DNA of 64,000 bases. Origin: Bacteroidia bacterium. Lineage in GTDB: Bacteria > Bacteroidota > Bacteroidia > B-17B0 > Aurantibacillaceae. The stretch spans positions 294,601-358,600 of the forward strand of contig JBGAGD010000003.1 in assembly GCA_044226875.1 (NCBI GenBank). Reading direction: 5' to 3'. The notes under the pieces were generated by a model. It ran no database searches, was not told the DNA's origin, and saw nothing but the letters and a program-made list of their open reading frames with translations. Of the stretch, positions 3,666 through 17,959 are shown one piece after another. Numbering within the stretch: position 1 is the first letter of the stretch; every line of letters starts with the position of its first letter. Both the position numbers and the translations under genes were made by a program.

Positions 3666-3753
3666 ATTTGGGAAAGTGCCCAAAACTGCTGCCGTTCCTT
3701 TGTATCGTCAATAACAAACGACTCAAAAAAGTAATCAATAAAAACTAAATAAA

Positions 3754-4302
3754 ATGACAGCAGTTAGAAAAATTAAAACAGTAACACCACATTTAACAGT
3801 AATAAAAGGTGGCAAATCAAATCCAAAAAACAACACAGTTGAGAACACATGGATTTTTATTCACGCAGCATTATGGTGCAATAATGAGTTTACTAATAAA
3901 GAAGAAACTCAGTTTCAAAATCTAATCGCAGAGCATTATAACACTTTTAAAAATCCAACAAAAGTATTTGAAGAGATTATTGAGCGTGTGTGTTTAGCGA
4001 AACGTTATGTAAACAGAAAACGTGGTCGTTATTTATCAAAACCTATTGATTGGTTAAACCTCAATTATCACAAGGGTTTAGCAGGTACAGAAGGATGGTA
4101 TCAAGAAGTTTGTTTGCAACGCATTAGTGTACCTGAATACAATAAAGGGATTACACTTCTCGCAAAAGCAATTACAAAATATCTGCAAGAACCTACAATT
4201 AAAACGATTGTTGCGTATCGCAAAAAGCTGATTGCACAAAAGCAATTCGATCTCTTACAAATTTTCAATAACAGCATTATCAATTTTCAAATCAATAATT
4301 AA
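3754..4302 (+). CDS. Hypothetical protein (candidate replication/regulatory protein next to the iteron region)
   Basis: 182-aa ORF immediately downstream of the repeat arrays. No motif recognised. Confidence 0.55.
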   Translation: MTAVRKIKTVTPHLTVIKGGKSNPKNNTVENTWIFIHAALWCNNEFTNKEETQFQNLIAEHYNTFKNPTKVFEEIIERVCLAKRYVNRKRGRYLSKPIDWLNLNYHKGLAGTEGWYQEVCLQRISVPEYNKGITLLAKAITKYLQEPTIKTIVAYRKKLIAQKQFDLLQIFNNSIINFQINN

Positions 4303-4311
4303 AAATAAACG

Positions 4312-4521
4312 ATGTCAAAAGTAGAAGTAAAATCAATCGAAATAAGACCATATATGCCGGGAGAATTGGCGAAGCTTTATAAAGTGAGTCACCCAACAAT
4401 CATAAGATGGATCAAAGGAATTGGAGACAAACTTGGTAAACGTGATGGTCAATACTATTCAGTGAAACAAGTAGAGATAATTTTTGAAGAATTAGGATTA
4501 CCAAAGACACTCTATTTCTAA
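4312..4521 (+). CDS. DUF4248-like small DNA-binding protein (paralog of 3084-3287)
   Basis: IEIRPYMPGELAKLYKVSHPTIIRWIKGIGDKLGKRDGQYYSVKQVEIIFEELGLP aligns with the 3084 ORF over the C-terminal 45 aa. Confidence 0.6.
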   Translation: MSKVEVKSIEIRPYMPGELAKLYKVSHPTIIRWIKGIGDKLGKRDGQYYSVKQVEIIFEELGLPKTLYF

Positions 4522-4618
4522 AAACAAATCGAAACGTCATAAAACCTCTCAAAACGATTTGATACATGCGCCAAAAAGAGGAAAGCGACTCAGACAACCG
4601 CTGCAACTTTGTACCGTG

Positions 4619-4846
4619 ATGGATGAATTACTAACTAAAAAAGAAAACGAAATGTCAGAAATTAAACACAATGCCGGAACACCGGATGGAACAGGAAACA
4701 TGCTACTTACAGCGAGCATCCTATTTGCAAACATTGACTACTCCAGTTTATTGGACTATGCGATTAAAGCAATTGTAGGTGGAGCAATTTGGATGGCATT
4801 TAAAGTAGGCGGAGAATATTTCAGCGACAAAATCAGAAAGAAGTAA
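4619..4846 (+). CDS. Small membrane protein (start chosen at internal ATG 4619; track ORF begins 4559)
   Basis: Has a C-terminal hydrophobic segment (LLDYAIKAIVGGAIWMAFKV). The stop abuts the next ATG at 4847. Confidence 0.45.
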   Translation: MDELLTKKENEMSEIKHNAGTPDGTGNMLLTASILFANIDYSSLLDYAIKAIVGGAIWMAFKVGGEYFSDKIRKK

Positions 4847-5347
4847 ATGGCAAGCATTAAAAAAATACTGTTAGGCTTAGGCATAGGAGGAGGCGTGGTA
4901 GCAGGTGGAATGTATCTGTGGAGATTGAATAAGACCTCGATTAACTTGGAGATAGTTCCAACGGTTAAGCTGCACAAGTTGGATTTGCAAGGAGTGGTGT
5001 TGAGAATAGATGTGCAGTTGAAAAATCCAACTCGCACGGGTTTAAAACTCAAGTTCCCTTTTATCAAATTACTGATTAAGGGAAGCAGCATCGGAAGTTC
5101 GCAAGCGGTCAATCAAGACATAGCGATACCTGCATTCGGTGAGGCAAAATTCGAAGCGATAATGATTCGCATTCCAATGTTCAGCCTCCTCTCTACTGCC
5201 AAAGGCTTATTACAAGCGGTACAACAAGGCGAAGCATTTAAAATTGGTGTTACTACCATGACAACAATTGATTTAGGTTGGAAGAAAATTCCTTTTGAAA
5301 AAACAGATGAAGTACAATTAATCGGAGCGCAAAATGGAGGCAACTAA
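4847..5347 (+). CDS. N-terminally anchored LEA_2/NDR1-like beta-sandwich protein
   Basis: A TM segment (ILLGLGIGGGVVAGGMYLW) is followed by LRIDVQLKNPTRTGLKLKFPFIKLLIKGSSIGSS. This resembles the LEA_2 (PF03168) pattern l.v.NPN..l......l..g..lg. Confidence 0.45.
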   Translation: MASIKKILLGLGIGGGVVAGGMYLWRLNKTSINLEIVPTVKLHKLDLQGVVLRIDVQLKNPTRTGLKLKFPFIKLLIKGSSIGSSQAVNQDIAIPAFGEAKFEAIMIRIPMFSLLSTAKGLLQAVQQGEAFKIGVTTMTTIDLGWKKIPFEKTDEVQLIGAQNGGN

Positions 5348-7094
5348 AAAAAGAAAAATAAGAAGCGGAGAAGAGTTCGACCATTTGTTTCCAAAGCCAT
5401 TGTTCCTTGATCCAACAATTAAAAAAGGTGCAACAGTAGATGACACGGTACGATTCATTCCCCAAGTAGTGAGAGAAACATTGTTTCAAACTGCAAAGTT
5501 AGCTCCACTTCTAAAAGGAAAAAACGTTTATGAAACCTGCAAGAACATTTGGGATTTTGTATACAACCACATCGCCTATAAGAAAGATGCAAATGGTAAA
5601 GAACAAATCAGAAGTCCGGCAAGAGGCTGGCACGATAGGTTTCATGGGATAGATTGCGATTGTTACACGGTGTTTATCAGCAGCATATTGAGCAACTTAA
5701 AAATAAAGCACAAACTGCGAATCACAAAATACAAACAAGATCACTTTCAGCACATCTATCCAATCGTGCCAACAACAGGAGGAAATTACATCACGGTCGA
5801 TTGTGTGGTAGACCGATTCAATTACGAAGAACCATACTCAGAAAAACAAGATACAACTATGGAATTAGAATATTTAAATGGCGTACCCAGCACAAACAAT
5901 GTAGATGTGCAAGACCTAATGGGTTGGGAAGAATTAGAAGGAGGCGACTTAGGTAAACTCTTTAAAAGAAAAGCTGCATCAGGCGGTGATGGTGGTGGTG
6001 CGAAAAAAGGAATTTTTAAAAAGCTAAGTCAACCACCGGGAAGCGATGGCGGAAAGAAAGGTGGTAAACTAAAAAACTTTATTCATAAAGCTCTTCATGT
6101 TACCAACCGAGTAAATCCTGCAACTGCTTTAATCCGATCAGGAGTATTAATCAGTATGAAACTTAATCTCTTCAAAGTAGCTCAACGATTAAAGTTCGCA
6201 TATCTAACAGATGAGCAAGCGAGACAGAAAGAAGTTGATATGAGCAAGTTCGACCGATTAAAAAAAGTAAAAGAAAAGTTAGAGAAGATTTTTTATGATG
6301 CCGGAGGTAAACCTGAAAATTTAAAGAAGGCAATCCTAACAGGCAAAGGAAATAAAAATCATGAAGTAAGCGGTTTAGGATATATCGTGGATGACATGAA
6401 TGGTCTTGATGAAACTTCTTCAATGAGCGATTTACTTGGTACTGAAGTTTTCTACGATGAAGGATTTAGCGGATTAGGAGAACTTGGTTCAGCAACTGCA
6501 ACTGCTGCTTCAATAACAGCAGCAACAGGAATCATCGGTGCAATTGCAGGGTTACTAAAAGGAATCGGAAACATCTTCCCTAAGAAAAAGAAAGAAGGAC
6601 AAGAATTTGAAAACACCGAATCGCAAGCAGGAGATGGAACAACAGCAGAAGAAGTATCGCAAGGTGCAGCAAATGTAAAAATTACTAACAGCGATACGGG
6701 AGAATCTACAACCACAACAAGCAGTTCAGGAGGCGGTGGAGAATCGGGATCAGAGTCAAGTGGTTCAGGAGGAGATGGCGGAGGAAGTGGCGATGGATCG
6801 AAAGCAATGATGCGAAGCGCAAGCACGACAGACAACGGTGGTGATTCAGGATCAGGTACAGGTGGAGATAAGCCTGCTGGATTTTGGGAGAAAAATAAAA
6901 AGTGGTTAAAGCCAACAGCGATTGGAGTAACAGGATTAGGCTTATTATTTCTCGGTTACAAAATGATGAATAAACCAAAGCCTCCTGCTCCAACACCTGT
7001 TGTATCCGGTCAACTCAAGGGATTAAAATCACGAAAGAAAAAGAAAGGAGGAAATAAAGGCACGAAGAAAAAGCAAGCAGTAGCATACATGTAA
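5334..7094 (+). CDS. Transglutaminase-like cysteine-protease-fold protein with G/S/K-rich low-complexity regions and a C-terminal TM anchor
   Basis: Candidate Cys-His-Asp triad with transglutaminase-core spacing: GIDCDCYTVF (C108/C110), FQHIYPIV (H140), ITVDCV (D156). Long GGDGGGAKKG and SSGGGGESGSESSGSGGDGGGSG tracts. TM segment AIGVTGLGLLFLGY followed by a Lys-rich tail. Confidence 0.5.
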   Translation: MEATKKRKIRSGEEFDHLFPKPLFLDPTIKKGATVDDTVRFIPQVVRETLFQTAKLAPLLKGKNVYETCKNIWDFVYNHIAYKKDANGKEQIRSPARGWHDRFHGIDCDCYTVFISSILSNLKIKHKLRITKYKQDHFQHIYPIVPTTGGNYITVDCVVDRFNYEEPYSEKQDTTMELEYLNGVPSTNNVDVQDLMGWEELEGGDLGKLFKRKAASGGDGGGAKKGIFKKLSQPPGSDGGKKGGKLKNFIHKALHVTNRVNPATALIRSGVLISMKLNLFKVAQRLKFAYLTDEQARQKEVDMSKFDRLKKVKEKLEKIFYDAGGKPENLKKAILTGKGNKNHEVSGLGYIVDDMNGLDETSSMSDLLGTEVFYDEGFSGLGELGSATATAASITAATGIIGAIAGLLKGIGNIFPKKKKEGQEFENTESQAGDGTTAEEVSQGAANVKITNSDTGESTTTTSSSGGGGESGSESSGSGGDGGGSGDGSKAMMRSASTTDNGGDSGSGTGGDKPAGFWEKNKKWLKPTAIGVTGLGLLFLGYKMMNKPKPPAPTPVVSGQLKGLKSRKKKKGGNKGTKKKQAVAYM

Positions 7095-7124
7095 AAAAAG
7101 AAAAACGATTAAAAAAAAAAGAAA

Positions 7125-7754
7125 ATGACAAAGAGAAAAAACAGTTATCAGAAAGCAGCACTCAAAAAATCACTTAGTGGTACTGGCGATGCAAGTACAG
7201 GAGCGAAAGTGAAAGACGCTGCAACTGAGTTGGGAAAAGACATCGTGATCGGAGTAATCGGAGGCGGAGTTGCAGGAGCTGTGTTAGGAAGATTGTCTTT
7301 CGTTGTTGGAGCAGCTGTTACAGGAGTTGGTCATTTTGCGAAAAACCGAATTGCATCAGCACTTGGTTTAGGAATGATGGCTTCAGGCACTTATCAAACT
7401 ATGTCCGGCATGAGTGGAAAACCCACTTCAGGATTGGATGGCGTGAAAGAGCGATTAATGGCTTTAAAGGACGACATGAAGAAGAGAATTTTTCTTGACA
7501 AAGTTTTGAAAGCAAAAGAAAAGAAAGAAGAGAAAACCGAAGAAGGAACAAACGGACTCGGACAAGTACAATACTTCGTTTACCCAAACACAGAGGACTC
7601 AATGGGCGCAGTTGAAATGAATGAGTTGGATAAAATCCAACAACAAATTCAAGCAAGCGCAATGAAGTACAACCAAGTTAATGGGATTGAAGTAGATCTC
7701 TTAAGCGGTGAAGAAGACATGGGCGAAGTAGAACCATCAGAAAAAATCTACTAA
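7125..7754 (+). CDS. Gly-zipper membrane protein, acidic C-terminus
   Basis: Two Gly/Ala-rich hydrophobic segments (IVIGVIGGGVAGAVLG, FVVGAAVTGVGHF). No known domain recognised. Confidence 0.6.
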   Translation: MTKRKNSYQKAALKKSLSGTGDASTGAKVKDAATELGKDIVIGVIGGGVAGAVLGRLSFVVGAAVTGVGHFAKNRIASALGLGMMASGTYQTMSGMSGKPTSGLDGVKERLMALKDDMKKRIFLDKVLKAKEKKEEKTEEGTNGLGQVQYFVYPNTEDSMGAVEMNELDKIQQQIQASAMKYNQVNGIEVDLLSGEEDMGEVEPSEKIY

Positions 7755-7816
7755 ACAAAAATCAAACATCCATCACACAAAATAAATCAAAAGTTAAATT
7801 TTAAAAAACAAAAATT

Positions 7817-8536
7817 ATGTTAGAACTATTAGACGGAACAGAAGAGTACAATAACGCAGGAGCGTTGTTAGGATTAGAAGGTGCAGAAAGCGAAGAACTG
7901 TTAGGTGCGCTTCGTAGAATGAACCCAATTGCTCGTCAACGCACCATTAACAAGTTGGCAAATCCTGGAGCAGGAAGTAAAGGCTCTCGTGCTGAAATGG
8001 AGAAACATTTCCGTGAGTTACCTGCGCACATCAAAAGTGCATTAGCAAAAGGAGAATTGCGTTTGGCAGATACCATTGTGTATTCCATCAAACCTGTGAA
8101 TTCAAAAACCATTAAGTTGTTTGAAACTCAGGATGTGAAAGAAGTTGGCTTGAGAAATATCAGCAACGCAAAATTACCAAAGAACCAAGCCTTATTGGTA
8201 AGCGGAATCGTGTTGTTGGCATCTATCCCTGAAAATGCGACTGCCGACAAAGTAATGGGATCGAAGTTTATTCAGTTGGAAGATTTCCCTGCAATTGCAA
8301 ACGGAGAGTTCAGCTTAAAAGCAAACAAAAAAATCATCATTCCTGAAACAAGTGTTGCTGCATTCAAAACATCAAACATGCACAGCGTTCCATTAGGATA
8401 TTACAAGTTGGCGAATCCACGCTTGATTCACGATGACATCTTGTTAGAGTTCACCGTTGAGTTAGGCTCAATGGAAGGACTTGATCCAAAAACCCAATTG
8501 TATGTTGGTTTACACGGAACTATTACAACTCCTTAA
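7817..8536 (+). CDS. Putative major structural (capsid?) protein
   Basis: 239 aa with a helical N-terminus and a beta-rich C-terminal ~150 aa. Followed by a strong intrinsic terminator, as is often seen after highly expressed capsid genes. The function is inferred. Confidence 0.35.
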   Translation: MLELLDGTEEYNNAGALLGLEGAESEELLGALRRMNPIARQRTINKLANPGAGSKGSRAEMEKHFRELPAHIKSALAKGELRLADTIVYSIKPVNSKTIKLFETQDVKEVGLRNISNAKLPKNQALLVSGIVLLASIPENATADKVMGSKFIQLEDFPAIANGEFSLKANKKIIIPETSVAAFKTSNMHSVPLGYYKLANPRLIHDDILLEFTVELGSMEGLDPKTQLYVGLHGTITTP

Positions 8537-8553
8537 TCAATAACCTAATAAGT

Positions 8554-8576
8554 CGGGAGAGCAATCTCCCGGCTTT
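8554..8576 (+). terminator. Rho-independent terminator
   Basis: CGGGAGA-gcaa-TCTCCCG hairpin followed by GCTTTT. Confidence 0.6.
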
Positions 8577-8591
8577 TAAAAAAGCAATACC

Positions 8592-8975
8592 ATGTTAAAA
8601 GCAACGAAAAAAAGATTTGATATAAAAATTCTTGTGGCGAACTCAACGGTGAGTGAAACCTTTGAATTGGAGAAGAACATTGTGAAAGTGCATGGGGTGT
8701 TGGTTACATCGGATAAGGACGATCTATTGTATTACAGAGGAACTCAGAAGATTGAAATAAACAAAGAAGAGTTCTTTCCTGATAACTACGAAAGCAAATT
8801 GTTAATGTCAGGAATCAATGTAGCACCAAAACAACGCTACTATGATTTGGGTGGTGTTGCACCCGGCAATGGCAGAGTTCAAATCTCTTACAAAGATTTG
8901 GATGATGGCAGAACGGTGTTCACGCCTTACCGAGTGAGTTTGTACTTAGACTGTGAAATGGAGGATGAGTTATGA
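8592..8975 (+). CDS. Hypothetical beta-rich protein (phage module)
   Basis: 127-aa ORF. ATGA overlap with the next ORF. Confidence 0.6.
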   Translation: MLKATKKRFDIKILVANSTVSETFELEKNIVKVHGVLVTSDKDDLLYYRGTQKIEINKEEFFPDNYESKLLMSGINVAPKQRYYDLGGVAPGNGRVQISYKDLDDGRTVFTPYRVSLYLDCEMEDEL

Positions 8976-9520
8976 TGAAAGAAGGAGTGATAATTAAAAC
9001 GATAAGTATTAAACGACAAGGCGAACGGAAACACTTTCAAATCAGGCTTCCCAAGGACACCAAGTTTATCATTGGAGTTGAATATGGAGGAAGATTGATA
9101 AGCAGAACGGAAGGTACTGTTGAAGCACCTGCACCAAAAGCTAAAACAGATGCGAAGGTCATTGAAGCTATTCATTCAACTGTTGAATCAGGCGCAGTAA
9201 GAGATGATAAACCAAAAGCACTTTTCAAAAGAAACCAATTAATCGGTGAGTTGAAACTGCAAAGTTGTGAAGAGGCGAATTGGTTTTATGCAGCAGATGT
9301 TTTTGGAAACGATGCCAACTTGAATTGGGGAGATTTTTCTCAAACAGGTTTTCCGGTAAATGATTTCACTCATGGCAATAAAAGAACAGAAGAAATTGTG
9401 AAGGTTGATGCAGAGTCGACAATCATTAACGGATGGTATTTAGATGCCTTGGGTAAGACGTTAAAGTTGGATATCAACTACGAGATTAAAGTTTATGTAT
9501 GGATTAATGTGGAGGAATAG
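8972..9520 (+). CDS. Hypothetical beta-rich protein (phage module)
   Basis: 182-aa ORF, translationally coupled to its neighbours. Confidence 0.6.
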   Translation: MMKEGVIIKTISIKRQGERKHFQIRLPKDTKFIIGVEYGGRLISRTEGTVEAPAPKAKTDAKVIEAIHSTVESGAVRDDKPKALFKRNQLIGELKLQSCEEANWFYAADVFGNDANLNWGDFSQTGFPVNDFTHGNKRTEEIVKVDAESTIINGWYLDALGKTLKLDINYEIKVYVWINVEE

Positions 9521-9523
9521 AAA

Positions 9524-9856
9524 ATGACAATAAATCTCGCCTTAGAATACATCCCACGAAGGATGCAGGAATTAGGATACAAGTCAGATTACTTTATCCG
9601 CTTCCGACACTTGGTGTTACAGCCAAATGAAGAACTAACCATTGATGCCCACACTCAATTCTATTACCTCGTTGAAGAAGCGCAGAATGTAAGAGTTGAA
9701 AGTGAAACAGGAATATTCGATTTGAGCGAAAGTGCTACCAATGAAATGCAATACGAACATCAAAGTAAAATACAGATCACTAATTATTTATCCGGAATCA
9801 ATCACTTAAGATTCATTCAAGTAATACCAAAAAACAAAACAACAATTAAAAAGTAA
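9524..9856 (+). CDS. Hypothetical small beta-rich protein (phage module)
   Basis: 110-aa ORF starting 3 nt after the previous stop. Confidence 0.6.
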   Translation: MTINLALEYIPRRMQELGYKSDYFIRFRHLVLQPNEELTIDAHTQFYYLVEEAQNVRVESETGIFDLSESATNEMQYEHQSKIQITNYLSGINHLRFIQVIPKNKTTIKK

Positions 9857-9861
9857 GAGTA

Positions 9862-10731
9862 ATGCAACATACCAATCCATATAACGATGTGAAGCTTTCC
9901 CAATTTAAAATGTGGCTTCACGACATGGTCGACAAAGGCGAAGGGAAATATATTGAAGTGTACGTTGACGATGTAAAAGTTGTGCCTCGTACCAACAGAA
10001 TTGAATCCATCGATGACCACAAAGTTTATCTTGATGATAGCACGGAAACAATAAAGATTTTCACTTACAATACTGAAAATTCAAACCGCTATCAGCAGTT
10101 TACTTTTTTCATCGAAAAAAAGAAACCAATTGAACACCCGGTTCAAAATCAAACACCACAAGTTCAACAACCACAAGGGCTATCCGGTATTGAATTAGAA
10201 AACAAAATCAATCAGTCCTTGGCACAAGAGCGTGAGCGTTGGCAAAATGATTTGATGAAACGTGACTATGAAACTTGCCAAAAGAAACTTACCGAAGCAG
10301 AAGATTACATCGAGGAGTTAGAAGAAAAACTCAATGTGTATAAAAGTAAAAAACTGCATTTAGGTGATGTTAACCTTGGTGAAGTTGCCTCTATTGTTTT
10401 AGAGGGAATGGTTAAACGAAACCCACATTGGGTTGCCAAATTACCCGGTGGAGATGCGCTTGCAGGATTGATTGCAAAGGAAGCTACAGAAAACGGAACA
10501 GCAGAAGTAATTGAAAGCGAAGTTGTGTTTAAAAAGAAAACACCTGTTGAAGATGGAATGTCCGAAGAGATGAAAGCGCAACTTGGATTCTTAAAACAAT
10601 TGGAATCACACTTTAATCAGGAGCAGCTTGATAAAATAATGCTCATCCTACAATCCTTTGTTGAAGAGCCAAAGAACATCGAAACAGTATTTGAACTATT
10701 AGAAATAAAAACAGAAAATGAAAAAGTTTAG
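9862..10731 (+). CDS. Hypothetical protein with Q/P linker and coiled-coil segment (scaffold-like?)
   Basis: 289 aa. Has a QNQTPQVQQPQ linker followed by the heptad-like LTEAEDYIEELEEKLNVYKSKK. Confidence 0.55.
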   Translation: MQHTNPYNDVKLSQFKMWLHDMVDKGEGKYIEVYVDDVKVVPRTNRIESIDDHKVYLDDSTETIKIFTYNTENSNRYQQFTFFIEKKKPIEHPVQNQTPQVQQPQGLSGIELENKINQSLAQERERWQNDLMKRDYETCQKKLTEAEDYIEELEEKLNVYKSKKLHLGDVNLGEVASIVLEGMVKRNPHWVAKLPGGDALAGLIAKEATENGTAEVIESEVVFKKKTPVEDGMSEEMKAQLGFLKQLESHFNQEQLDKIMLILQSFVEEPKNIETVFELLEIKTENEKV

Positions 10732-10900
10732 TTATGAAATAACCATTGAAGCGGCTACTGAAGCAGAAGCCGATTCTAAAATGAAAGCGTTAACCACGAT
10801 TGCAAAAAAGTTAAACACTAAGGAAATAGTGAAGCTTGCCGACATCGTACAAAACGATCCTGTAAAAACTGCATTAGCAAAAAAAGCATTAGGAGTATAA
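10718..10900 (+). CDS. Small helical hypothetical protein
   Basis: 60-aa ORF that overlaps the previous gene by 14 nt and ends 1 nt before the next ATG. Confidence 0.45.
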   Translation: MKKFSYEITIEAATEAEADSKMKALTTIAKKLNTKEIVKLADIVQNDPVKTALAKKALGV

Positions 10901-10901
10901 A

Positions 10902-11579: not shown

Positions 11580-12193
11580 TGGAAAGCAAAACACAAAATA
11601 AAAGAAAAATAATCCTGATCGGACTGAGTGTATTAGGAACTGGTGTCGCTGGCTTCTTAGGATGGAACTACTGGAAAAAGAAGAAAGCGAATCAGGAAGA
11701 AGATACAACCTCCTTTACAGAAACTGCAAGCGTAAATACTGCGCCTGTAAAAAACGACAGCTTCCCTTTAAAAAGAGGCAGTAAAGGAAACAGAGTAACA
11801 CAACTTCAAAATGCCTTAGTTAAAAAATTCGGAGCAAGCATACTTCCAAAATACGGAGTAGATGGAATGTTCGGGAAAGAGGTTGAAGCAGCATTAGTGA
11901 GGGCTAAGTTGCCGACATCAATTAACGAATCGACCTATAATTCTTTTGTTGGTGCAAGCGGATTTGCCGGAATCATAAAACATGGAGATGAGATCGTTTC
12001 GATTGTTGAAACTGAAATCTATAAATCCAAAGGCAACTTTAAAATGAAAGTGCCTAAGCACATTGTGCTTGGCGAGAAGGAGTTTACTCATCAAGGTTGG
12101 ATTTACTTTATTCCTAAGAATAGCACAGAGCTTTTCAGGGTTAAAAAAGAACAAGTAAAATCCTTTAAAGAATTTAAAAATGAAAAATCTTAG
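11579..12193 (+). CDS. Membrane-anchored peptidoglycan-binding (PG_binding_1) protein
   Basis: Start taken at ATG 11579 (TAATG overlap with the previous stop). TM segment IILIGLSVLGTGVAGFLGW. LKRGSKGNRVTQLQNALVKKFG...VDGMFGKEVEAALVRAKL matches PG_binding_1. Confidence 0.7.
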   Translation: MESKTQNKRKIILIGLSVLGTGVAGFLGWNYWKKKKANQEEDTTSFTETASVNTAPVKNDSFPLKRGSKGNRVTQLQNALVKKFGASILPKYGVDGMFGKEVEAALVRAKLPTSINESTYNSFVGASGFAGIIKHGDEIVSIVETEIYKSKGNFKMKVPKHIVLGEKEFTHQGWIYFIPKNSTELFRVKKEQVKSFKEFKNEKS

Positions 12194-12626
12194 AAACATT
12201 AAATATATCGTGGTGCATTGTACCGCAACTCCACCAACAACAACTGTTGAATCCATTAAACGCTATTGGAAAGAACAACGTGGTTGGGGTGATACACCGG
12301 GCTACCATTACTTGATCCAACGACAAGGGAATTTAATTCAGTTGTTAGATGAAAGCAAAAACAGCTATGGCGTTTATGCTCACAATTCAAATTGCATTAG
12401 CCTTGCTTACATCGGTGGAATTGATAAAGATGGCAAACCACAAGACAACAGAACAGATGCACAAAAGCATTCCATGTTTGATTTGATTGTTTCTCTAACT
12501 GAGAAATATCCAAATGCACAGGTGTTGGGACATCGTGATTTTGCAGGAGTGAAAAAAGCCTGTCCTTGTTTCGATGTGAAGAAGTGGTTAAGTGAGTATG
12601 AACCCGATTTAGGAAACGCTGCATAA
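12180..12626 (+). CDS. N-acetylmuramoyl-L-alanine amidase (Amidase_2/PGRP, T7-lysozyme-like endolysin)
   Basis: Motifs IKYIVVHCTATPP, GYHYLI, ISLAYIGG, GHRDF..KACPCFDV provide the Zn ligands (H, H, C). Confidence 0.85.
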   Translation: MKNLRNIKYIVVHCTATPPTTTVESIKRYWKEQRGWGDTPGYHYLIQRQGNLIQLLDESKNSYGVYAHNSNCISLAYIGGIDKDGKPQDNRTDAQKHSMFDLIVSLTEKYPNAQVLGHRDFAGVKKACPCFDVKKWLSEYEPDLGNAA

Positions 12627-13309
12627 TGTTGCTATCGAAGATCAAAGGAATTCTACGAAGCAAAGGATATGAACTCTACACAAAGCCGAATCAATTAAAC
12701 ATAGTTGGGATTAGATCACCAAATACAATCCCTAATCGTTTTGATGATGAGATTCATGTCTTTTACAAAGTAGCCCCATTAAAATGGCATTACCATGTTT
12801 ACAAGGTAACAACCGATCCGGGTACATTTTGGTTGCGTAATCCAATGCAACCTCAAGGTACAGCCATCTTAGCTCAAGGGCAATACAAAGGTGCGTATAG
12901 AATCGGAATGCATCAAGGGAAGTACAAAGCATTGGTGCAATCAAAACCGATAACTGTAATAAGAGATTACGACAGAGATGCAAAACTTGATTTTAAAAAT
13001 GGCACAAAGAGCAAAGGGATGTATGGGATTAATATCCACCGTGCAAGTTTGAATGGGATCACAAAGCAAGTAGATAAATATTCTGCCGGATGTCAAGTGT
13101 TTTCAAATATCAATGAGTTCAAGGAATTCTTGAGTTTGTGCGAGAAGCACTTGAGTTTATACGGTAACAGTTTTACATACACGCTGATTGATTTTAGAGC
13201 GGTAAAGCGACAATCCTTTAAGCGTTGGGCTATCGGAACGGTGACTGTAGCATTAGGTTTAACAGCCTTGTGGGGAATTCTAAAAAGGAAAAAGAAAAAA
13301 CAAAAATGA
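12626..13309 (+). CDS. Putative cell-wall-active protein with YkuD-like H...SxGC signature and C-terminal TM anchor
   Basis: GINIHRAS...VDKYSAGCQVF resembles the L,D-transpeptidase-fold catalytic His/Cys motif. C-terminal TM segment WAIGTVTVALGLTALWGIL plus a KRKKKKQK tail. TAATG coupling to the amidase gene. Confidence 0.35.
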   Translation: MLLSKIKGILRSKGYELYTKPNQLNIVGIRSPNTIPNRFDDEIHVFYKVAPLKWHYHVYKVTTDPGTFWLRNPMQPQGTAILAQGQYKGAYRIGMHQGKYKALVQSKPITVIRDYDRDAKLDFKNGTKSKGMYGINIHRASLNGITKQVDKYSAGCQVFSNINEFKEFLSLCEKHLSLYGNSFTYTLIDFRAVKRQSFKRWAIGTVTVALGLTALWGILKRKKKKQK

Positions 13310-13530
13310 AAAATCGATTCATAACAGCTTTAGCGCAATTGCTAAAAGACAAAAATGGTAATACCAGTCTGCGTGAAGTAGTCACAGTCTTGTTTGTGAT
13401 TGTGTTGCTCGTGAGTTGGATTGCAGATCAGTTCTTTGAATTACAAATGCCCGAACACATGTTTTATGGTTTTATAACCCTTGTGGGAGCAGGTTGCTTC
13501 GGGTACTCGATTGAAAAAAAACAAGTGTAA
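13306..13530 (+). CDS. Holin-like small two-TM protein
   Basis: 74 aa from the internal ATG at 13306 (ATGA overlap with the previous stop). Two hydrophobic segments (VVTVLFVIVLLVSWI, FYGFITLVGAGCFGY). Sits in the lysis cassette. Confidence 0.45.
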   Translation: MKNRFITALAQLLKDKNGNTSLREVVTVLFVIVLLVSWIADQFFELQMPEHMFYGFITLVGAGCFGYSIEKKQV

Positions 13531-13549
13531 AATTTAAAAACTAATAAAT

Positions 13550-14155
13550 ATGAAACAGTTATTTTCTGCCTTTATCATAGGCATCATTGTTTGTTTCATC
13601 GCTGTAAAAAGCTGCGATGACAAACCAAAACAGGTAAATGTAAAAGAAATCAAAAAGGAGATTAAGACCTCCGGCAACTTAGTAGAAACGGTTAATCACG
13701 AATACCAAAAGGCGAAACACGAGTTCTCCAAAGTTGCCGATTCTTTGAAAACTGAAAACCAAAAGCTAAATGTAAAACTGCAAGTAACAAGAGCGTTATT
13801 GAAGAAGCAGCAAACAGTAGTTGTAAGCAATATTCCTTGTGACACATTGCGAAAGGAAGTTATAGTGCTGAACGATTTATGTAATGCTCAAGACAGTATA
13901 TGCAGCGTTTCCATTAGTTCGCTCAATCAAGCGGTTGCAGTAAGGGATTCACAAATTGTAATGTGTAACAGGAGTTATCAATCCTTGTTCGACATACAAA
14001 AAGAAAATCAGCAAAGACAAATGCAATTAGCTGAAGAGTTGAATACAGCTTACAAGGCAAACAGAAAGAAACGTTTTGAAAACAAAATGCTCACCTATGG
14101 GCTAATGATAATGTCGGGAATAACAACAACACTATTTATTAAATCACAGCAATAA
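13550..14155 (+). CDS. Spanin-like protein: N-terminal signal/anchor with Cys22, coiled-coil middle, C-terminal TM
   Basis: N-terminus MKQLFSAFIIGIIVCFIAVKSCDD, a heptad-rich middle, and C-terminal LTYGLMIMSGITTTLFI. Located right after the holin-like gene. Confidence 0.35.
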   Translation: MKQLFSAFIIGIIVCFIAVKSCDDKPKQVNVKEIKKEIKTSGNLVETVNHEYQKAKHEFSKVADSLKTENQKLNVKLQVTRALLKKQQTVVVSNIPCDTLRKEVIVLNDLCNAQDSICSVSISSLNQAVAVRDSQIVMCNRSYQSLFDIQKENQQRQMQLAEELNTAYKANRKKRFENKMLTYGLMIMSGITTTLFIKSQQ

Positions 14156-14330
14156 TGATAAAAGAGAAAACTATCGTTTCAACCACCACACTTGCAGCCT
14201 CTCTACTTATGTACTTCTATGCGAGAACCGCACAGAAAGACGCAGTTCCCTATGTGATGATTGGTGGTTTTATGGGAGCGGTTATCGGAGAGAGCATTGT
14301 TGAATATATAAACAAAAATAAAAAAGACTA
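14154..14330 (+). CDS. Unlisted 58-aa two-TM small protein (below ORF-track cutoff)
   Basis: Hand translation: MIKEKTIVSTTTLAASLLMYFYARTAQKDAVPYVMIGGFMGAVIGESIVEYINKNKKD. TAATG overlap with the previous stop. It exactly fills the gap before the ATG at 14334. Confidence 0.4.
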
Positions 14331-14333
14331 AGT

Positions 14334-14891
14334 ATGGCAACTATTATTGAAAACAACGGAGGTAGCATTAAGATTACCGAGAATGGTTCATCACGTTTTG
14401 TTCTGAAGTATCAGGTTCGTGAAGTGGAAATCGTAAGAGATACCATTATCAAAATTGACATCGGACAAGGTGCGCTAAACAACATCTATGTTGATCAGGC
14501 AGATGTTACTGCTCCAGTAACTGCTACAGTTGAGGAGTTGAGAGATCAAATCATTGGAATGTTACAAACCAATGTAACAGGGACTGCAACCGAAGCCAAA
14601 CAAACTGAAGAGATTAACGAGATTAAAAATCTTCAGGCAGTTGTTGGGAACTTGCAAGCGAAAGTAAATTCATTGGACGACAAAACATTCTTTCAACCTA
14701 AGTTGGTTGATGAGAGTAATGCAAATGTTGTGTACAATGGATTCGCTGTACCGGGAACAGCAGTTGATGCGCCTGTTTGGGCAATTCAGAAAGTAACCAA
14801 AACGAATGGTGTTTATTCCTACCAATGGGCAGGAGGTAACAGAAACTTCGACAAAATTTGGAACAACAGAAAAGCATTAATCTATAGCTAA
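14334..14891 (+). CDS. Hypothetical protein with central coiled coil (possible virion/receptor-binding protein)
   Basis: 185 aa. Coiled-coil stretch EINEIKNLQAVVGNLQAKVNSLD and a beta-rich C-terminus. Followed by a strong terminator. Confidence 0.55.
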   Translation: MATIIENNGGSIKITENGSSRFVLKYQVREVEIVRDTIIKIDIGQGALNNIYVDQADVTAPVTATVEELRDQIIGMLQTNVTGTATEAKQTEEINEIKNLQAVVGNLQAKVNSLDDKTFFQPKLVDESNANVVYNGFAVPGTAVDAPVWAIQKVTKTNGVYSYQWAGGNRNFDKIWNNRKALIYS

Positions 14892-14897
14892 AATCAA

Positions 14898-14930
14898 AGA
14901 GCCTCTTTCGGGAGGCTCTTTATTCTTTTT
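14898..14930 (+). terminator. Rho-independent terminator
   Basis: AGAGCCTC-tttcgg-GAGGCTCT hairpin followed by TTATTCTTTTT. Confidence 0.65.
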
Positions 14931-14933
14931 AAA

Positions 14934-15806
14934 ATGAAAACACCAATAACATACTACGGAGGGAAACAAACCCTATTAAAATACCTACTCCCTTTGATTC
15001 CGCAGCACAGATTGTACTGCGAACCGTTCTTTGGTGGTGGTGCAGTATTTTTTGCTAAACCGAAATCGGAAGTAGAAGTAATTAATGATATCAATAATGA
15101 AGTCATTAATTTTTTCAAAGTAATTAAAACGAAGTTCCCTGAACTTCAAAAAGAAATTCAATCAACCTTACACAGTCGTGAACTTTATAAAAGAGCGATG
15201 GAGATTTATAATAACCCCACAAAGTATTCAGATGTGAAACGTGCATGGGCATTATGGACAGCAACCAATCAAGGTTTCGCTGGCATGATAGGCTCTTGGG
15301 GTTTTGGTAAGGATGATTCAAAAGAAGCAGCACTCGCCAATAAAAGAGATGCTTTTACAAAGGAGTATGAACAACGACTCACAAAAGTGCAAGTCGAAAA
15401 TAATAGTGCAATCAAAGTAATAAACAGATGCGATGACAAAGAAACATTTATCTATGCAGACCCTCCGTACATTGGTTCGGATCAAGGTCATTATAAAGGT
15501 TATTCGGAAGACGATTACCGAGAACTTCTCAATGCGCTTTCCAAGGTAAAAGGAAAGTTCTTGTTAAGTTCTTATCCTTCAAAAATTCTAACCACTTACA
15601 TCAATAAATACAAGTGGAAAGTTCAAAAGGTTACTAAAAGCGTTGCAGTAACAAAACACACCGATAAAGTAAAAACGGAAATGATCGTTATGAATTACGA
15701 TCCTGCAAAAGCAAAATCTTTTATACACACATTGAGTCTGAAGGAGAAGAAGGACTTGCAAAGTTTAACGAGACAATTAACGCAATTAAAATTTAAAGCA
15801 AAATGA
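14934..15806 (+). CDS. dam: DNA adenine methyltransferase (D12 class, Dam-like), orphan
   Basis: Motifs YYGGKQTLLKYLLPLIP, EPFFGGGAVFF (SAM binding) and YADPPYIGS (DPPY catalytic motif). No adjacent restriction endonuclease recognised. Confidence 0.85.
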   Translation: MKTPITYYGGKQTLLKYLLPLIPQHRLYCEPFFGGGAVFFAKPKSEVEVINDINNEVINFFKVIKTKFPELQKEIQSTLHSRELYKRAMEIYNNPTKYSDVKRAWALWTATNQGFAGMIGSWGFGKDDSKEAALANKRDAFTKEYEQRLTKVQVENNSAIKVINRCDDKETFIYADPPYIGSDQGHYKGYSEDDYRELLNALSKVKGKFLLSSYPSKILTTYINKYKWKVQKVTKSVAVTKHTDKVKTEMIVMNYDPAKAKSFIHTLSLKEKKDLQSLTRQLTQLKFKAK

Positions 15807-17959
15807 GAATAACAACCAAGAATTATTTTAAAGCCATTAGTGAAGTTGGTTTTGAGAATCTGCCGGAGGTGCTTAAAAAATCTCACTTGGTGATTGAAGA
15901 GAAAACTAACAAAGGCAACGATTGGGGCATTTATGAAAATGATGCCGAGGCAAAAAAGGTGTTTGATTTAGCGTTTGATAAACTTGAGGAATTTATCGAC
16001 CGCAAAGAAGATCTTTCAGGCTTAGATGGCAACCCAATCATTGACAGAGCAAAGAAGGATGCCGCAGGATATAAGGACTTGCCACTCGATAAATTAAAAA
16101 TGATTTATCGTTTGGAACTTGATGCTGAATTGGAAGATGGATTAACTCCCGAAATTAAAATTAGAAAGGCTGCTTTGGAAAAAGCTATTGCTGCTAAAGA
16201 GGGAAAAAGCAATGGTGTATCCGTTAGTTCAAAAAACAAATTTGCAGGTATTAGCAATGAAATAAAATTCATTCACATGTATCTAAATTTCCATGACAAG
16301 GTTCTTTATAAAAATACCATCGGTTTATTTATAGATGATCTTCAAAAAGCAATCACAGAAAAGAAGATTACAAAAAAGTCGCCTGTTGCAAAGGAAATCA
16401 TGGAGATGCAGGAGTCTGCGTTAAAAGCTTTTAATTCCATGCGGAACGCCAAACATATTATGTTGCGTCCTGAAGTAATTAAAAAGCTAAAAGGCATCAT
16501 TGAGAAGTATGAGAATGCTTACGATGATATTGATGAGTCTTATGCAAAAGAAAAAAAGCAAAAGAAGAACTTAAATGGTTTGGGTAATGTTCCGGTAAAC
16601 ATTATGCCGAGTAAGGAATTCACAAACCTTCATTTTAATACAATAGGGTTCACAGGAAAATGGCTTGACTTTATTGGCGATCCTGCTCCGGGTTTTACTG
16701 CGATGGTATTTGGAATGCCTAAGATGGGTAAGAGTTATTTGTGCATTGATTTTGCCGGCTATTTAGCGAGAAATCATGGCAAGGTGTTATACGTTGCCAA
16801 AGAAGAGAAGCTTGATGCTACGTTGCAGAAAAAGTTAAAGGATAAAGATGTTGCTCATGAAAATTTATTTGTATCGGATGCACTTCCTACAGAACTATCT
16901 TCTTATGATTTTATTTTTCTTGATTCTGTAAACAAACTTGGTCTTACTGCGAAAGACCTGGAAAAATTAAAAATGCAAAACAAAGGAAAGTCTTTTGTCT
17001 TTATTTTTCAGGCAACCAAAGGCGGTCAGTTCAAAGGCAACAATGAGTTTCAACATGATGTTGATGTTGTAATTGAAATACCGGAAAAAGGTATTGCAAC
17101 TCAATACGGTCGTTTTAATCAGGGTGGAAAGATGGGAGTATTCGATGATGCGCCCATTGGAGATGTGGAAGAGTTAAATGGTGTCAGAAAAAGCGGAAAG
17201 AACTTGGAAGTTCCAAAGAAAGTATCGAACGTAGACACTATGAAAAAGAAAGCAACAAAAACCGAAGACTGGACTGAGCCGGAACACTTAAATAAAAGTG
17301 ACCATGCAGTTCTTAAAGAAATTAATCGCCTTTATAAAGCAAAGAAATATAAAGAAGCGATGAACCGTGCAATGGAAACGGATACGATTGTTAGGGAGGA
17401 AATCCCCGGAGACATTTGGAAAAAGATGGGTGGTCAGTTAACTAAAACAGGAGAAGAAAGATTAAAAGCAAAACACAGCAAAGCTTCTCCTGAAATAGTT
17501 AAAGCAGAAAAGCCTAAACAAACAATTGTTTTTAATTCTACAATCCGTGCTTTAAAAGGAGTTATTGAGCGTGAGTGGGATCTTGAATTAACGGATGGCG
17601 AGTACATTGAAATTTTAGACATCGCTCAAGAACAAAGCGTAAATTTTTACGATGTTGTAACTGAAATGCATCCGAACCTTACAGCGTTTATGACGCAGAT
17701 GGGGATGGCGTTAAAAGTGTGGGATAAAACTGCCGAGAAATCAAAAGGAAAGTTTGATCCTCGCTACTATGCAAATAGAAAGGATGACGACAACCCTTCT
17801 TTTATCTTTAGTTTAACAAGTAGTAAACTGCTTGCTGAAGCTATCGAAGGAGACTTTGATTTGATTTATTTAGTGCGCAGGGAATTGGCTAACAGGGGGC
17901 AAGATAGCAAGGGAAAATGGGTTGGGTTTGATGAAGCTAAAAGAATCCACAGAATTTAA
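15803..17959 (+). CDS. Multidomain protein with central RecA-superfamily P-loop ATPase (DnaB/RepA/RadA-like core)
   Basis: Walker A GMPKMGKS (nt 16712-16735) and Walker B YDFIFLDSV. FVFIFQATKGGQFKGNNEFQHDVDVVIEI resembles the RadA/DnaB C-terminal core. Flanking ~270-aa N-terminal and C-terminal regions have no recognised motif. Confidence 0.6.
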   Translation: MRITTKNYFKAISEVGFENLPEVLKKSHLVIEEKTNKGNDWGIYENDAEAKKVFDLAFDKLEEFIDRKEDLSGLDGNPIIDRAKKDAAGYKDLPLDKLKMIYRLELDAELEDGLTPEIKIRKAALEKAIAAKEGKSNGVSVSSKNKFAGISNEIKFIHMYLNFHDKVLYKNTIGLFIDDLQKAITEKKITKKSPVAKEIMEMQESALKAFNSMRNAKHIMLRPEVIKKLKGIIEKYENAYDDIDESYAKEKKQKKNLNGLGNVPVNIMPSKEFTNLHFNTIGFTGKWLDFIGDPAPGFTAMVFGMPKMGKSYLCIDFAGYLARNHGKVLYVAKEEKLDATLQKKLKDKDVAHENLFVSDALPTELSSYDFIFLDSVNKLGLTAKDLEKLKMQNKGKSFVFIFQATKGGQFKGNNEFQHDVDVVIEIPEKGIATQYGRFNQGGKMGVFDDAPIGDVEELNGVRKSGKNLEVPKKVSNVDTMKKKATKTEDWTEPEHLNKSDHAVLKEINRLYKAKKYKEAMNRAMETDTIVREEIPGDIWKKMGGQLTKTGEERLKAKHSKASPEIVKAEKPKQTIVFNSTIRALKGVIEREWDLELTDGEYIEILDIAQEQSVNFYDVVTEMHPNLTAFMTQMGMALKVWDKTAEKSKGKFDPRYYANRKDDDNPSFIFSLTSSKLLAEAIEGDFDLIYLVRRELANRGQDSKGKWVGFDEAKRIHRI

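Follow-up and report, generated by a model that had tools for sequence, protein, structure and literature searches.

A conserved gene module in uncultured Bacteroidota that may encode a tailless, membrane-containing virus with a single jelly-roll capsid protein

A 64,000-nt stretch of contig JBGAGD010000003.1 from a Bacteroidia bacterium (assembly GCA_044226875.1), hereafter called the window, was analysed, and all coordinates refer to it unless another locus is named; L-numbers designate loci fetched for comparison. Positions 2014-17959 were found to contain a tightly packed plus-strand array of 24 open reading frames (ORFs), which forms the conserved core of an integrated element (Table 1) and is described here as a candidate tailless virus. 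Among the 23 ORF junctions of the array, 9 were overlapping by 1-14 nt and 7 had gaps of 0-9 nt, and the array contained one large intergenic gap (466 nt at 3288-3753). An earlier reading made from the letters of the window (the sequence-only reading) had described a compact, one-directional module with lysis genes, and had suggested a tailless virus with an internal membrane and a jelly-roll capsid. The 24-ORF layout and the lysis gene matches in Pfam and PHROGs agreed with this description of the module.

Gene content of the conserved core

In the core, Pfam recognized a fusion of helix-turn-helix (HTH) and Peptidase_M78 domains, an Amidase_2 protein and a D12 Dam-type methyltransferase and, weakly, two small HTH proteins and an AAA_25-type signal in a 718-aa protein. 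PHROGs added endolysin families for 11528/11579-12193, phrog_3000 and an endolysin family for 12626-13309, and an "ATPase" family for 15803-17959. The lysis cassette, the lone Dam and the RecA-superfamily ATPase named in the sequence-only reading were thus recovered by these matches. For 15 core proteins no match was obtained across Pfam, PHROGs and NCBIfam, and no terminase, portal, HK97 capsid, tape measure or tail family was matched by any of the 24 core ORFs in the same three collections, as the sequence-only reading had stated. The PHROG tail category gave no match in the core, where the largest non-enzymatic ORF was 586 aa. The sole ATPase (P-loop NTPase) family match in the core was that of the RecA/KaiC/RepA-type protein at 15803-17959. 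Neither the whole region (megablast) nor the capsid candidate described below (tblastn) matched any of 50,697 phage records; the core was not covered by INPHARED or PLSDB either, and no description of it was found in the literature searched.

Transmembrane (TM)-like segments, called by Kyte-Doolittle hydropathy with a 19-residue window and a threshold of 1.6, were present in eight ORFs (starts 4847, 5334, 7125, 10902, 11579, 12626, 13306, and 13550). This agrees with the at least eight TM-anchored proteins proposed before; two further ORFs on that list (4619 and 14154/14155) showed weaker hydrophobic stretches. An all-against-all profile comparison of the 24 core families detected paralogy only between the two small HTH proteins, and not among the small beta-rich proteins. 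Of four consecutive proteins that had been called beta-rich, the first, the product of 7817-8536, was modelled, with a beta-sandwich as the result.

This 239-aa protein had been regarded as the best capsid candidate, and as too short for a typical HK97-fold protein. An AlphaFold2 model built on 103 diverse sequences reached a predicted local distance difference test score (pLDDT) of 90.5 and a predicted TM-score (pTM) of 0.81; an earlier run on a shallow alignment (25 sequences, at least 71% identical) was unusable (pLDDT 47.7). The model showed helices over residues 1-77, followed by a single eight-stranded jelly roll (residues 82-239), and as modelled the fold is a single jelly roll and not HK97, in line with the earlier expectation. 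In a Foldseek search against PDB, the first ranks were taken by capsid proteins of PBCV-1, EhV-201 (probability 1.0), SPV1 and SGIV and by the FLiP penton, with the SPV1 capsid protein (6oj0_A) at E 6e-4, probability 1.0 and TM-score 0.47. Lower ranks included SH1 chain 6qt9_g (probability 0.80, TM-score 0.41) and a Helicobacter pylori phage cement protein, and the BFVD matches comprised capsid proteins of nucleocytoplasmic large DNA viruses and of circular Rep-encoding single-stranded DNA viruses amid uncharacterized proteins; for one 211-aa BFVD match, I1ZBH9, a suspected identity with gp46 of the phage SSIP-1 (see below) was dropped. Double jelly-roll capsid proteins were matched over one barrel only (target-normalised TM-score 0.12-0.21). 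The structural comparison proposed earlier for this ORF therefore placed jelly-roll capsid proteins first, with weak matches, and because the E-values were modest and non-viral jelly rolls stood in the same list, the protein is treated here as a putative capsid protein.

The family of the capsid candidate comprised 1685 clusters at 90% identity and 430 at 50% (the latter from a search of the family profile against 1.84 billion cluster representatives, E <= 1e-3), none of them annotated. Its profile gave no link to PDB sequences, a PHROG scan of 103 diverse members gave no meaningful family, and no match was found in the plasmid collection. The gene was the most conserved of the module, with 66-100% identity across loci. 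No profile similarity to it was detected in the neighbouring proteins of 127, 182, and 110 aa.

Two further core proteins were shown to have sequence-detectable relatives in a cultured virus, the tailless, membrane-containing Salisaeta phage SSIP-1, when orthologue profiles from the fetched loci were searched against the 57 SSIP-1 proteins. The 718-aa ATPase matched SSIP-1 gp40, annotated as "ATPase; structural protein" (tblastn E 8e-5 in a search of the whole phage collection; profile 30-31 bits), and the alignment included matching Walker A, Walker B, and K-D-G-K...H-[DE]-V-D motifs. The 586-aa family (79-orthologue profile) matched gp34, annotated as a structural protein, with 36.8 bits (blastp 38.5 bits); DCDCYT was aligned with DCDGMS and FQHIYP with YDHVYV, which places the transglutaminase-like Cys and His in register. 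Both matches have moderate scores and involve widespread domain types. The best SSIP-1 blastp match of the 239-aa protein was gp45 (E 0.31), which together with gp46 forms a pair of 210-211-aa paralogues (26% identical) annotated as structural.

The 586-aa protein has an N-terminal transglutaminase-like Cys/His domain, Gly/Ser-rich linkers, a TM segment at 390-408 and a poly-Lys tail, and matched no Pfam or PHROG family. Upstream of it, the genes of the 75-aa and 166-aa proteins, both candidate virion-membrane proteins, were syntenic in 80-83 loci. The three small soluble proteins beside the capsid candidate had no sequence matches and varied in identity across loci (127-aa, 37-100%; 182-aa, 23-97%; 110-aa, 41-100%), the 182-aa one carrying a hypervariable insert; by their position they are candidates for minor capsid, penton or second capsid proteins. 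The following 289-aa protein was poorly conserved (25-98% identity) and gave coiled-coil matches only in PDB. Profile searches of PDB with the 239-, 182-, 185-, 127- and 289-aa families returned nothing or coiled-coil noise. By eye, the repeats of the 225-aa protein (DGWWGTD...Y..LY...M..D...EL...EY) look annexin-like, and no family matched them. The 185-aa protein, a putative spike or receptor-binding protein, showed 46-82% identity between co-resident copies and had no PDB sequence match.

Relatives of the lysin encoded at 12626-13309 were found in crAss-like, Bacteroides, Pseudoalteromonas, and Bdellovibrio phages. From their size, topology and position after the lysins, the three proteins encoded at 13306-14331 appear to be a holin-/spanin-like set. 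The D12-class methyltransferase had no partner endonuclease. Despite this Dam-type gene, GATC was depleted in the element (1930-17960; 35 observed vs. 52 expected, 0.67), and it was enriched in the chromosomal part of the window (20000-64000; 197 vs. 142, 1.39). A 69%-identical homologue of the 718-aa ATPase bears the NCBI name "helicase RepA family protein"; by its sequence the ATPase could be either a replicative helicase or a virion/packaging ATPase.

At the left edge of the core, a TAnnTTTG-type -7 box was found within 1941-2013, and by the known Bacteroidota consensus this stretch is a putative promoter/operator. The HTH-M78 gene and this promoter were located inside the conserved block in 62 loci. 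The 67-aa HTH protein downstream was a paralogue of the ORF 4312-4521 product (hhalign probability 100%). The 466-nt region behind it contained degenerate CCCC(G)AATAAA-type repeats at 3370-3480 (about seven by eye, three by strict pattern), four copies of GCRCTTAG and two of TGCGCAT, and is a candidate origin or regulatory region. The 182-aa basic protein encoded next to it matched nothing in Pfam, PHROGs, NCBIfam, or PADLOC, and its synteny was kept in 67 loci; from its gene position it is a candidate origin-binding or replication-initiation protein.

Table 1. Features of the element and its borders in the window (strand as read 5' to 3'; a dot marks a non-coding region).
Position	Strand	Feature	Basis
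1-1899	+	Right end of variable defence/cargo island: GMT-wHTH (41-1144), DUF5131 (1144-1899)	Pfam
1941-2013 (palindrome 1940-1961)	+	Left core edge; putative promoter/operator with palindrome TTATGCAA-N6-TTGCATAA	Homology start in 30 loci
2014-3048	+	Fused XRE-HTH and M78 (ImmA/IrrE) zinc peptidase	Pfam HTH_3, Peptidase_M78
3084-3287	+	67-aa HTH protein	Weak HTH_29/DUF4248 matches
3288-3753	.	466-nt non-coding region	Sequence and repeat counts
3754-4302	+	182-aa basic protein	K+R 27 vs. D+E 14
4312-4521	+	69-aa HTH protein, excisionase/HTH_17-like (weak)	Pfam, profile comparison
start 4559 or 4619	+	75-aa protein, hydrophobic C-terminus	Hydropathy
4847-5347	+	166-aa protein, N-terminal TM and weak LEA_2-like beta domain	Hydropathy, Pfam
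5334-7094	+	586-aa transglutaminase-like protein	SSIP-1 gp34 homology, hydropathy
7125-7754	+	209-aa membrane protein, Gly-rich TM pair at 36-65, acidic C-terminus	Hydropathy
7817-8536	+	239-aa candidate major capsid protein	AlphaFold2 model, Foldseek, conservation
8592-9856	+	Three small soluble proteins of 127, 182, and 110 aa	Position beside capsid candidate
9862-10900	+	289-aa acidic coiled-coil protein, scaffold-like, and 60-aa protein	D+E 53 vs. K+R 37
10902-11579	+	225-aa protein, N-terminal TM and two internal repeats of ~90 aa	Hydropathy; direct repeat 11225/11489
11528/11579-12193	+	TM-anchored protein with peptidoglycan-binding-like domain	Endolysin PHROGs
12180-12626	+	Soluble Amidase_2	Pfam 5.5e-18
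12626-13309	+	phrog_3000/endolysin-like protein, C-terminal TM	phrog_3000 1e-36 and endolysin PHROG
from 13306, within 13306-14331	+	74-aa TM protein	Hydropathy
from 13550, within 13306-14331	+	201-aa protein, hydrophobic N- and C-terminal ends and coiled coil	Hydropathy
from 14155, within 13306-14331	+	58-aa hydrophobic protein	Hydropathy
14334-14891	+	185-aa protein: beta N-domain, coiled coil, Trp/Tyr-rich C-domain	Family alignment
14934-15806	+	D12-class N6-adenine (Dam-type) DNA methyltransferase, without partner endonuclease	Pfam 2.3e-29
15803-17959	+	718-aa protein, central RecA/KaiC/RepA-type ATPase (~271-508)	phrog_6891 1.6e-21; weak AAA_25, RadA
18076-19876	+	Metal-resistance cargo: ArsR, MerC-like with Cys-rich tail, cation-diffusion facilitator	Pfam
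19899-19964	+	Conserved right-end motif, 45-nt invariant core 19920-19964	Comparison of contexts

Distribution, boundaries and cargo

The exact 239-aa protein was indexed in 260 blocks of a public contig collection, and the same gene order was found in ten fetched loci. More than 90 fetched loci contained the module array, and each of them came from uncultured Bacteroidota. When one genome per species was scanned, 262 loci were obtained; the best 80 of these were all from Bacteroidota metagenome-assembled genomes (MAGs; Bacteroidia, Chitinophagaceae, Ferruginibacter, Sphingobacteriaceae, and Flavobacteriaceae), and among these 80 several genomes contained two or three module copies. The habitats were freshwater, wastewater, and soil, and two loci had been called viral independently in IMG/VR.

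The most variable genes of the module were those for the regulators, the ATPase and the proteins of 182, 185, and 289 aa. A conserved capsid protein beside a variable spike, ATPase and regulators is the usual phage pattern. Compared to the window, L018 showed 97-100% identity in the structural genes and 85, 69, and 57% in the three regulators; judged from sequence, this regulator swap is immunity-region mosaicism typical of temperate phages. Co-resident copies in one MAG differed in the capsid candidate (72-94% identity), the ATPase (53-58%) and most of all in the small HTH protein of ORF 4312-4521 (32-80%). As copies within one genome were never identical, they represent co-resident lineages rather than duplications. 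At the right end, Dam and the ATPase were replaced in some loci by one of two alternative modules, consisting either of a RadC-methylase, AAA_24 and a LexA/S24 repressor, or of a giant RadC-methylase-SNF2 protein (23 loci).

A blastn comparison of 97 loci with the window showed that homology starts at ~1926-1947 and stops at ~17955-17964. In an alignment of 30 left junctions, the same sharp edge was found at the HTH-M78 promoter/operator, and the sequence further upstream was unrelated. The limits of the module given in the sequence-only reading (3754-17959) were therefore too narrow: the conserved unit starts at ~1941, and the element runs to the end motif at 19899-19964. The genes directly left of the core (1-1899) are probably cargo of the same integrated element. 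In other loci this position was occupied by type I/II restriction-modification systems, MmeI-like enzymes, BREX, or GmrSD, which differed from locus to locus; in L100, a secretion sorting-tail protein, a DUF8199 protein and an unannotated 178-aa ORF abutted the HTH-M78 gene, none of which are phage genes. L100 contained a CTD10/MC6/DUF2326 conflict system within the element at the position of the 466-nt gap, which makes this gap a candidate second hotspot for cargo insertion.

The region further to the left was followed in a near-identical relative (L001, then P0391, then L109; L109 is 98.4% identical to window 1-17960, via the same contig, L011). Leftward of the core it contained genes for DUF5131, GMT-wHTH, an SMC-like protein, an MmeI-like methyltransferase and an SNF2-PLD helicase, followed by an HTH protein, a sigma-54-activator-like ATPase, a glycosyltransferase/radical-SAM protein, a histidine phosphatase and two small ORFs, and finally by a 613-aa large serine recombinase (Resolvase and Recombinase domains) directly beside the host gene rplS. 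In L001/L109, the ~19 kb preceding the window start (27 kb to the left of the gene at 3754) contained no terminase, portal, or tail genes, nor was any terminase or portal found in the flanks of L006-L015. The L109 recombinase was 84% identical to that of L070 and 41% identical to that of the IMG/VR contig L016, and all three contigs bear the module. The upstream inspection called for earlier thus yielded a serine recombinase and no caudoviral genes, as seen in relatives, and no attachment (att) repeats. No convincing att direct repeats were detected within the window or between the recombinase side and the right end, a search for an empty integration site through the right-flank gene gave only the same context, and the right-end motif had no copy on the recombinase side.

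Several other observations were made in the left region. L109 8797-20762 together with window 1-1899 resembles a composite defence locus (SNF2-PLD helicase of 1118 aa, MmeI-like methyltransferase of 1189 aa, SMC-like protein of 657 aa), and the glycosyltransferase/radical-SAM-SPASM protein further left in L109 is a fusion that accompanies the histidine phosphatase. A direct repeat of ~90 bp (L109 2130-2215/2577-2646) surrounds a 97-aa GIY-YIG ORF between rplS and the serine recombinase, and the called recombinase ORF overlaps this repeat. For the GIY-YIG ORF with its repeat, a small homing-endonuclease element is one possible reading and a piece of the attachment region another.

Right of the ATPase gene, the ArsR/MerC/cation-diffusion facilitator (CDF) cassette was identified as cargo, because ArsR and MerC genes also follow the ATPase in the L105/L106 lineage, in which the ATPase is only 68% identical, and L011 lacks the cassette and has the end motif directly behind the ATPase gene. 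The MerC-like protein (18453-19061) has a Cys-rich C-terminal extension of ~80 residues with CxxC pairs and a terminal CC; this 202-aa architecture recurs in L105/L106, which suggests that the tail is a fused metal-binding domain. In L008, L011, L012, and L020, the end motif lies ~130 bp past the ATPase stop codon, and the DNA beyond it is unrelated. Its 45-nt core ATCATCAATAAAGTTCGATAAATCCAACCCGYAGGGTAC was invariant in 24 contexts, including L070 and the metagenome loci L114-L132; most copies had a looser 5' extension of ~50 nt, and nearly all were followed by a terminator hairpin that differed between copies. The motif may be a recombination site or a cassette boundary. A role of the 66-nt motif as an RNA was dropped, since it gave no tRNA/tmRNA match, no Rfam match and no covarying structure. 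The motif was also present in 19 metagenome contigs without the module, where it was located upstream of CDF genes and beside homologues of a 76-aa gene that neighbours the serine recombinase, and L115 contained it twice, 5.1 kb apart. L070 (13842-19770) contains a rearranged copy, in which the module breaks off behind its homologue of the 10902 gene; next come a serine recombinase on the minus strand, four unrelated ORFs and the end motif. This arrangement suggests that a small element of recombinase and motif is able to exist apart from the viral core or to insert into that core. From 20170 to 64000, the window contained ordinary chromosomal genes (AraC regulators, a dehydrogenase, TPR, S41 peptidase, OmpA, two-component systems, MlaD, HrpB).

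The element probably extends from ~1941 to 19964 in the window, plus ~18 kb leftward. From recombinase to end motif it would measure ~36-38 kb, about half of it cargo, and would contain no caudoviral genes.

Proposed life cycle and alternative explanations

The reading that we favour, and hold to be somewhat better than an even chance, is that the element represents a new family-level lineage of temperate, tailless, single-jelly-roll membrane viruses. A more detailed version is tentative and less secure: in it the lineage, at the level of a family or above, has gone unrecognized, the 239-aa protein builds its capsid, the RecA/KaiC ATPase shared with SSIP-1 packages the DNA or the shell assembles around the genome, and the virus acts as a vehicle for defence and metal-resistance genes. 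In the proposed life cycle, the element would probably be integrated, as inferred from its relatives, by the large serine recombinase ~18 kb left of the core, beyond the defence island. Lysogeny would be controlled by the HTH-ImmA/IrrE-type peptidase, a candidate lysogeny or induction switch, together with the two paralogous small HTH proteins, as suggested by knowledge of such families and by the mosaicism. Replication may start in the repeat-rich region 3288-3753 through the 182-aa basic protein and the RepA/KaiC-type ATPase. The 239-aa protein, with a predicted jelly-roll fold, would form the capsid shell, probably with its three small neighbours, around a virion membrane that could hold the at least eight anchored proteins whose genes are interleaved with those of the capsid candidates. 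The 185-aa coiled-coil protein may bind the receptor as a spike, and the 586-aa gp34-like protein and the two anchored wall-binding/degrading proteins may mediate entry from within this membrane. Release would employ the amidase and the holin-like and spanin-like proteins; the lysin domains are recognized, and the roles are putative. Packaging is the weakest step of the scheme, because no FtsK/HerA ATPase was found; the RecA-type ATPase may package DNA, since gp40, its homologue in SSIP-1, is virion-associated. Alternatively, the shell may assemble around the genome. The defence systems and the ArsR/MerC/CDF genes, whose domains are recognized, may benefit the lysogen.

The earlier idea of a tailless internal-membrane virus with a jelly-roll capsid thus gained support from the jelly-roll model, the lack of tailed-phage genes and the two links to SSIP-1, and found none in the strength of the structural matches, a packaging ATPase or a second capsid protein, with an element larger than described and an ATPase that may be a replication helicase. 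A number of results weigh against the favoured reading. The Foldseek matches are weak (E 4e-4 to 2e-2, TM-score <=0.47), and the same list holds non-viral jelly rolls (furin P-domain, TNF/C1q-like and spore-appendage proteins). Family searches found no FtsK/HerA (A32-like) packaging ATPase in the core, and a second jelly-roll capsid protein or a penton protein was not demonstrated. The gp34 match falls on the transglutaminase-like core, a widespread domain, and the hhalign comparison of the 239-aa family with gp45/gp46, collinear over 134 columns and with local patterns visibly in common, fell short of significance (E 0.05, probability 1%). The capsid candidate had no counterpart in the phage records searched, its family occurred in only two IMG/VR contigs, and it is unusually well conserved (identity of at least 66% across orders). 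A 17.5-kb module contig, the one contig checked, had no terminal overlap and was not circular. The recombinase and left end lie outside the window and are tied to the core by adjacency and recurrence only, and a length of ~36-38 kb with highly variable content is awkward for a capsid of fixed size.

If the core were the right arm of an ordinary tailed prophage, its morphogenesis genes would have to lie left of the window, which starts only 2 kb left of the core, and endolysins, Dam methylases and HTH-M78 regulators are often found in tailed prophages. The sequence-only reading had likewise left room for the missing genes to lie left of position 1. However, the 19 kb left of the window start in the near-identical relative comprised only defence/cargo genes, the serine recombinase and rplS, and the core is therefore not taken as such an arm; the left edge of homology was identical in 30 loci with unrelated upstream genes, the genes abutting it in L100 were not phage genes, no PHROG head, packaging, or tail matches were obtained and the modelled capsid candidate does not have the HK97 fold. 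This explanation is extremely improbable. Of more weight, though still unlikely, is a non-viral genomic island or a part of an integrative and conjugative or mobilizable element, in which the products would be envelope, vesicle or surface proteins with a lectin-/TNF-like jelly roll and wall-remodelling lysins. RteC, a regulator of Bacteroides conjugative transposons, was encoded directly upstream of the module in four loci, and the giant RadC-methylase-SNF2 protein that follows the module in the 23 loci mentioned above is of the "strawberry notch" type typical of conjugative elements; the defence and metal-resistance cargo beside the module, the non-viral jelly rolls among the Foldseek matches, the lack of a detected packaging ATPase and the near absence of the family from IMG/VR point the same way. 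Against this, no relaxase, coupling protein or tra genes were present in the window or any flank examined, and the conjugative-element reading is ranked low because no tra or mob genes were found. Moreover, none of the ~15 core proteins match the Pfam families of CTnDOT-type elements, which are well covered, a cassette resembling a holin/endolysin/spanin set and containing phage-type lysins is present, two genes match SSIP-1 virion proteins, the top structural matches are capsid proteins, and the gene order is syntenic and capsid-like, from membrane proteins through the capsid candidate to lysis.

A defective or domesticated provirus, or an element forming particles like those of gene transfer agents or satellites, kept for its cargo or for lysis-mediated release, is improbable in our view. 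It would account for the very high conservation of the capsid candidate, with an identical 239-aa sequence in the 260 contig-collection blocks, for the several copies per genome and the defence islands that are always adjacent, for the lack of an observed circular form, and for the truncated, rearranged copy in L070. On the other hand, the window and most loci have the full set of 24 genes, intact and tightly coupled, the immunity-type mosaicism and the heterogeneous replication modules indicate ongoing horizontal exchange, insertion contexts vary between genomes, and the co-resident copies are diverged lineages. As to the HTH-M78 gene, it seems quite improbable that it belongs to a RosmerTA-type toxin-antitoxin system of the adjacent defence island rather than acting as a lysogeny switch. 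RosmerTA consists of a Zn-peptidase antitoxin and a toxin whose function is unknown (bioRxiv 10.1101/2022.05.11.491447). The PADLOC model RmrA matched the HTH-M78 protein nearly over its full length (residues 6-329, 1.4e-57), and the gene is placed at the border with the defence island. Nevertheless, the gene is read as the element's own regulator because it has no conserved RmrT-like toxin partner: its upstream neighbour changes from locus to locus, and its conserved downstream neighbour is the 67-aa HTH protein, a paralogue of a core gene. Both gene and promoter also belong to the block conserved in the 62 loci, and the defence cargo of L100 is inserted within the element, downstream of this gene.

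Tailless phages with a membrane are considered abundant, but no more than a handful have been isolated; to our knowledge, almost all that is known of the single jelly-roll branch comes from extremophiles (Thermus, haloarchaea, Salisaeta). If the favoured reading is true, SSIP-1 gains its first relatives, the single jelly-roll lineage reaches mesophilic bacteria, and a family invisible to Pfam/PHROGs and nearly absent from IMG/VR reveals a sizeable blind spot of virus detection in environmental Bacteroidota. The element would then also be a test case for DNA packaging without a canonical ATPase and a major carrier of defence islands and of metal resistance among the Bacteroidota of freshwater, soil, and wastewater. 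Between bacteria of wastewater and freshwater it transfers genes for restriction-modification, BREX, conflict systems and metal resistance; its two cargo hotspots are an obvious target in the search for new defence systems, and the capsid-candidate profile is a marker for metagenome mining.

Comparison with known viruses and mobile elements

On the sequence matches, SSIP-1 is the closest known relative, by two genes, and the only cultured virus in which relatives of two core genes were detected by sequence. Its host is from a related phylum, its capsid candidates of ~210 aa are close in size to the jelly-roll part of the 239-aa protein, and its record lists an integrase, an endolysin and a giant methyltransferase (structural), to be compared with the giant methylase-helicase that can follow the module. 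However, SSIP-1 has 43.8 kb and 57 genes, and only 2 of the 24 core genes match it. It has two paralogous capsid candidates, whereas the element has one jelly-roll protein with an additional helical N-domain of 77 residues. The ATPase of the element, unlike that of SSIP-1, has 718 aa with extra N- and C-terminal domains and is encoded at the far end of the element beside the Dam gene. SSIP-1 is from a hypersaline environment, and the elements described here are from freshwater, wastewater, and soil MAGs.

Sphaerolipoviridae and Matsushitaviridae (P23-77, IN93, SH1, HHIV-2; Helvetiavirae) are tailless icosahedral viruses with an internal membrane and small single jelly-roll capsid proteins; temperate members exist, and the genomes are 17-31 kb. 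The core showed no sequence similarity to them. Their characteristic trio of an A32/FtsK-type ATPase and a small and a large capsid protein in a row has no equivalent here, where no such ATPase was found and no second jelly roll has been demonstrated. The Portogloboviridae member SPV1, which has a membrane-containing particle and a genome of ~20 kb, gave the highest target-normalised TM-score (0.47) among the top-ranked matches. This is a resemblance in fold only: SPV1 infects an archaeal hyperthermophile, has no genes in common with the element and has no lysis cassette of this type. We know of no recognizable packaging ATPase in SPV1 or FLiP.

Finnlakeviridae (the Flavobacterium phages FLiP and phiCjT23) resemble the element in having Bacteroidota hosts, an internal membrane and no tail. 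The FLiP penton protein (8a06) was a weak Foldseek match of the 239-aa model. In contrast to Finnlakeviridae, which have ssDNA genomes and use rolling-circle Rep proteins, the core described here has 16 kb, a single jelly-roll candidate and RepA-helicase-type replication genes, and showed no sequence similarity to them. FLiP has an ssDNA genome of ~9 kb and a double jelly-roll capsid protein (PMC6356626, PMC6260650), and phiCjT23 was reported to be temperate (PMC9719478). More generally, Bamfordvirae (Tectiviridae, Corticoviridae, Autolykiviridae, FLiP-like) have two jelly rolls per chain, and the 239-aa model has one.

In its cargo, the element is analogous to the P2/P4-type defence hotspots of enterobacteria, with variable anti-phage systems at two fixed positions beside or inside a conserved mobile core, and, as in serine-recombinase prophages and islands, the recombinase was seen in relatives at one end beside a housekeeping gene. 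Unlike hotspot-carrying prophages, the core is neither a tailed phage nor a known satellite; the hotspot bounds and the link to the recombinase are deduced from relatives. The lineage would differ from its known kin in capsid-protein architecture, absence of a canonical ATPase, mesophilic Bacteroidota hosts, a serine-recombinase lifestyle and the carriage of defence islands.

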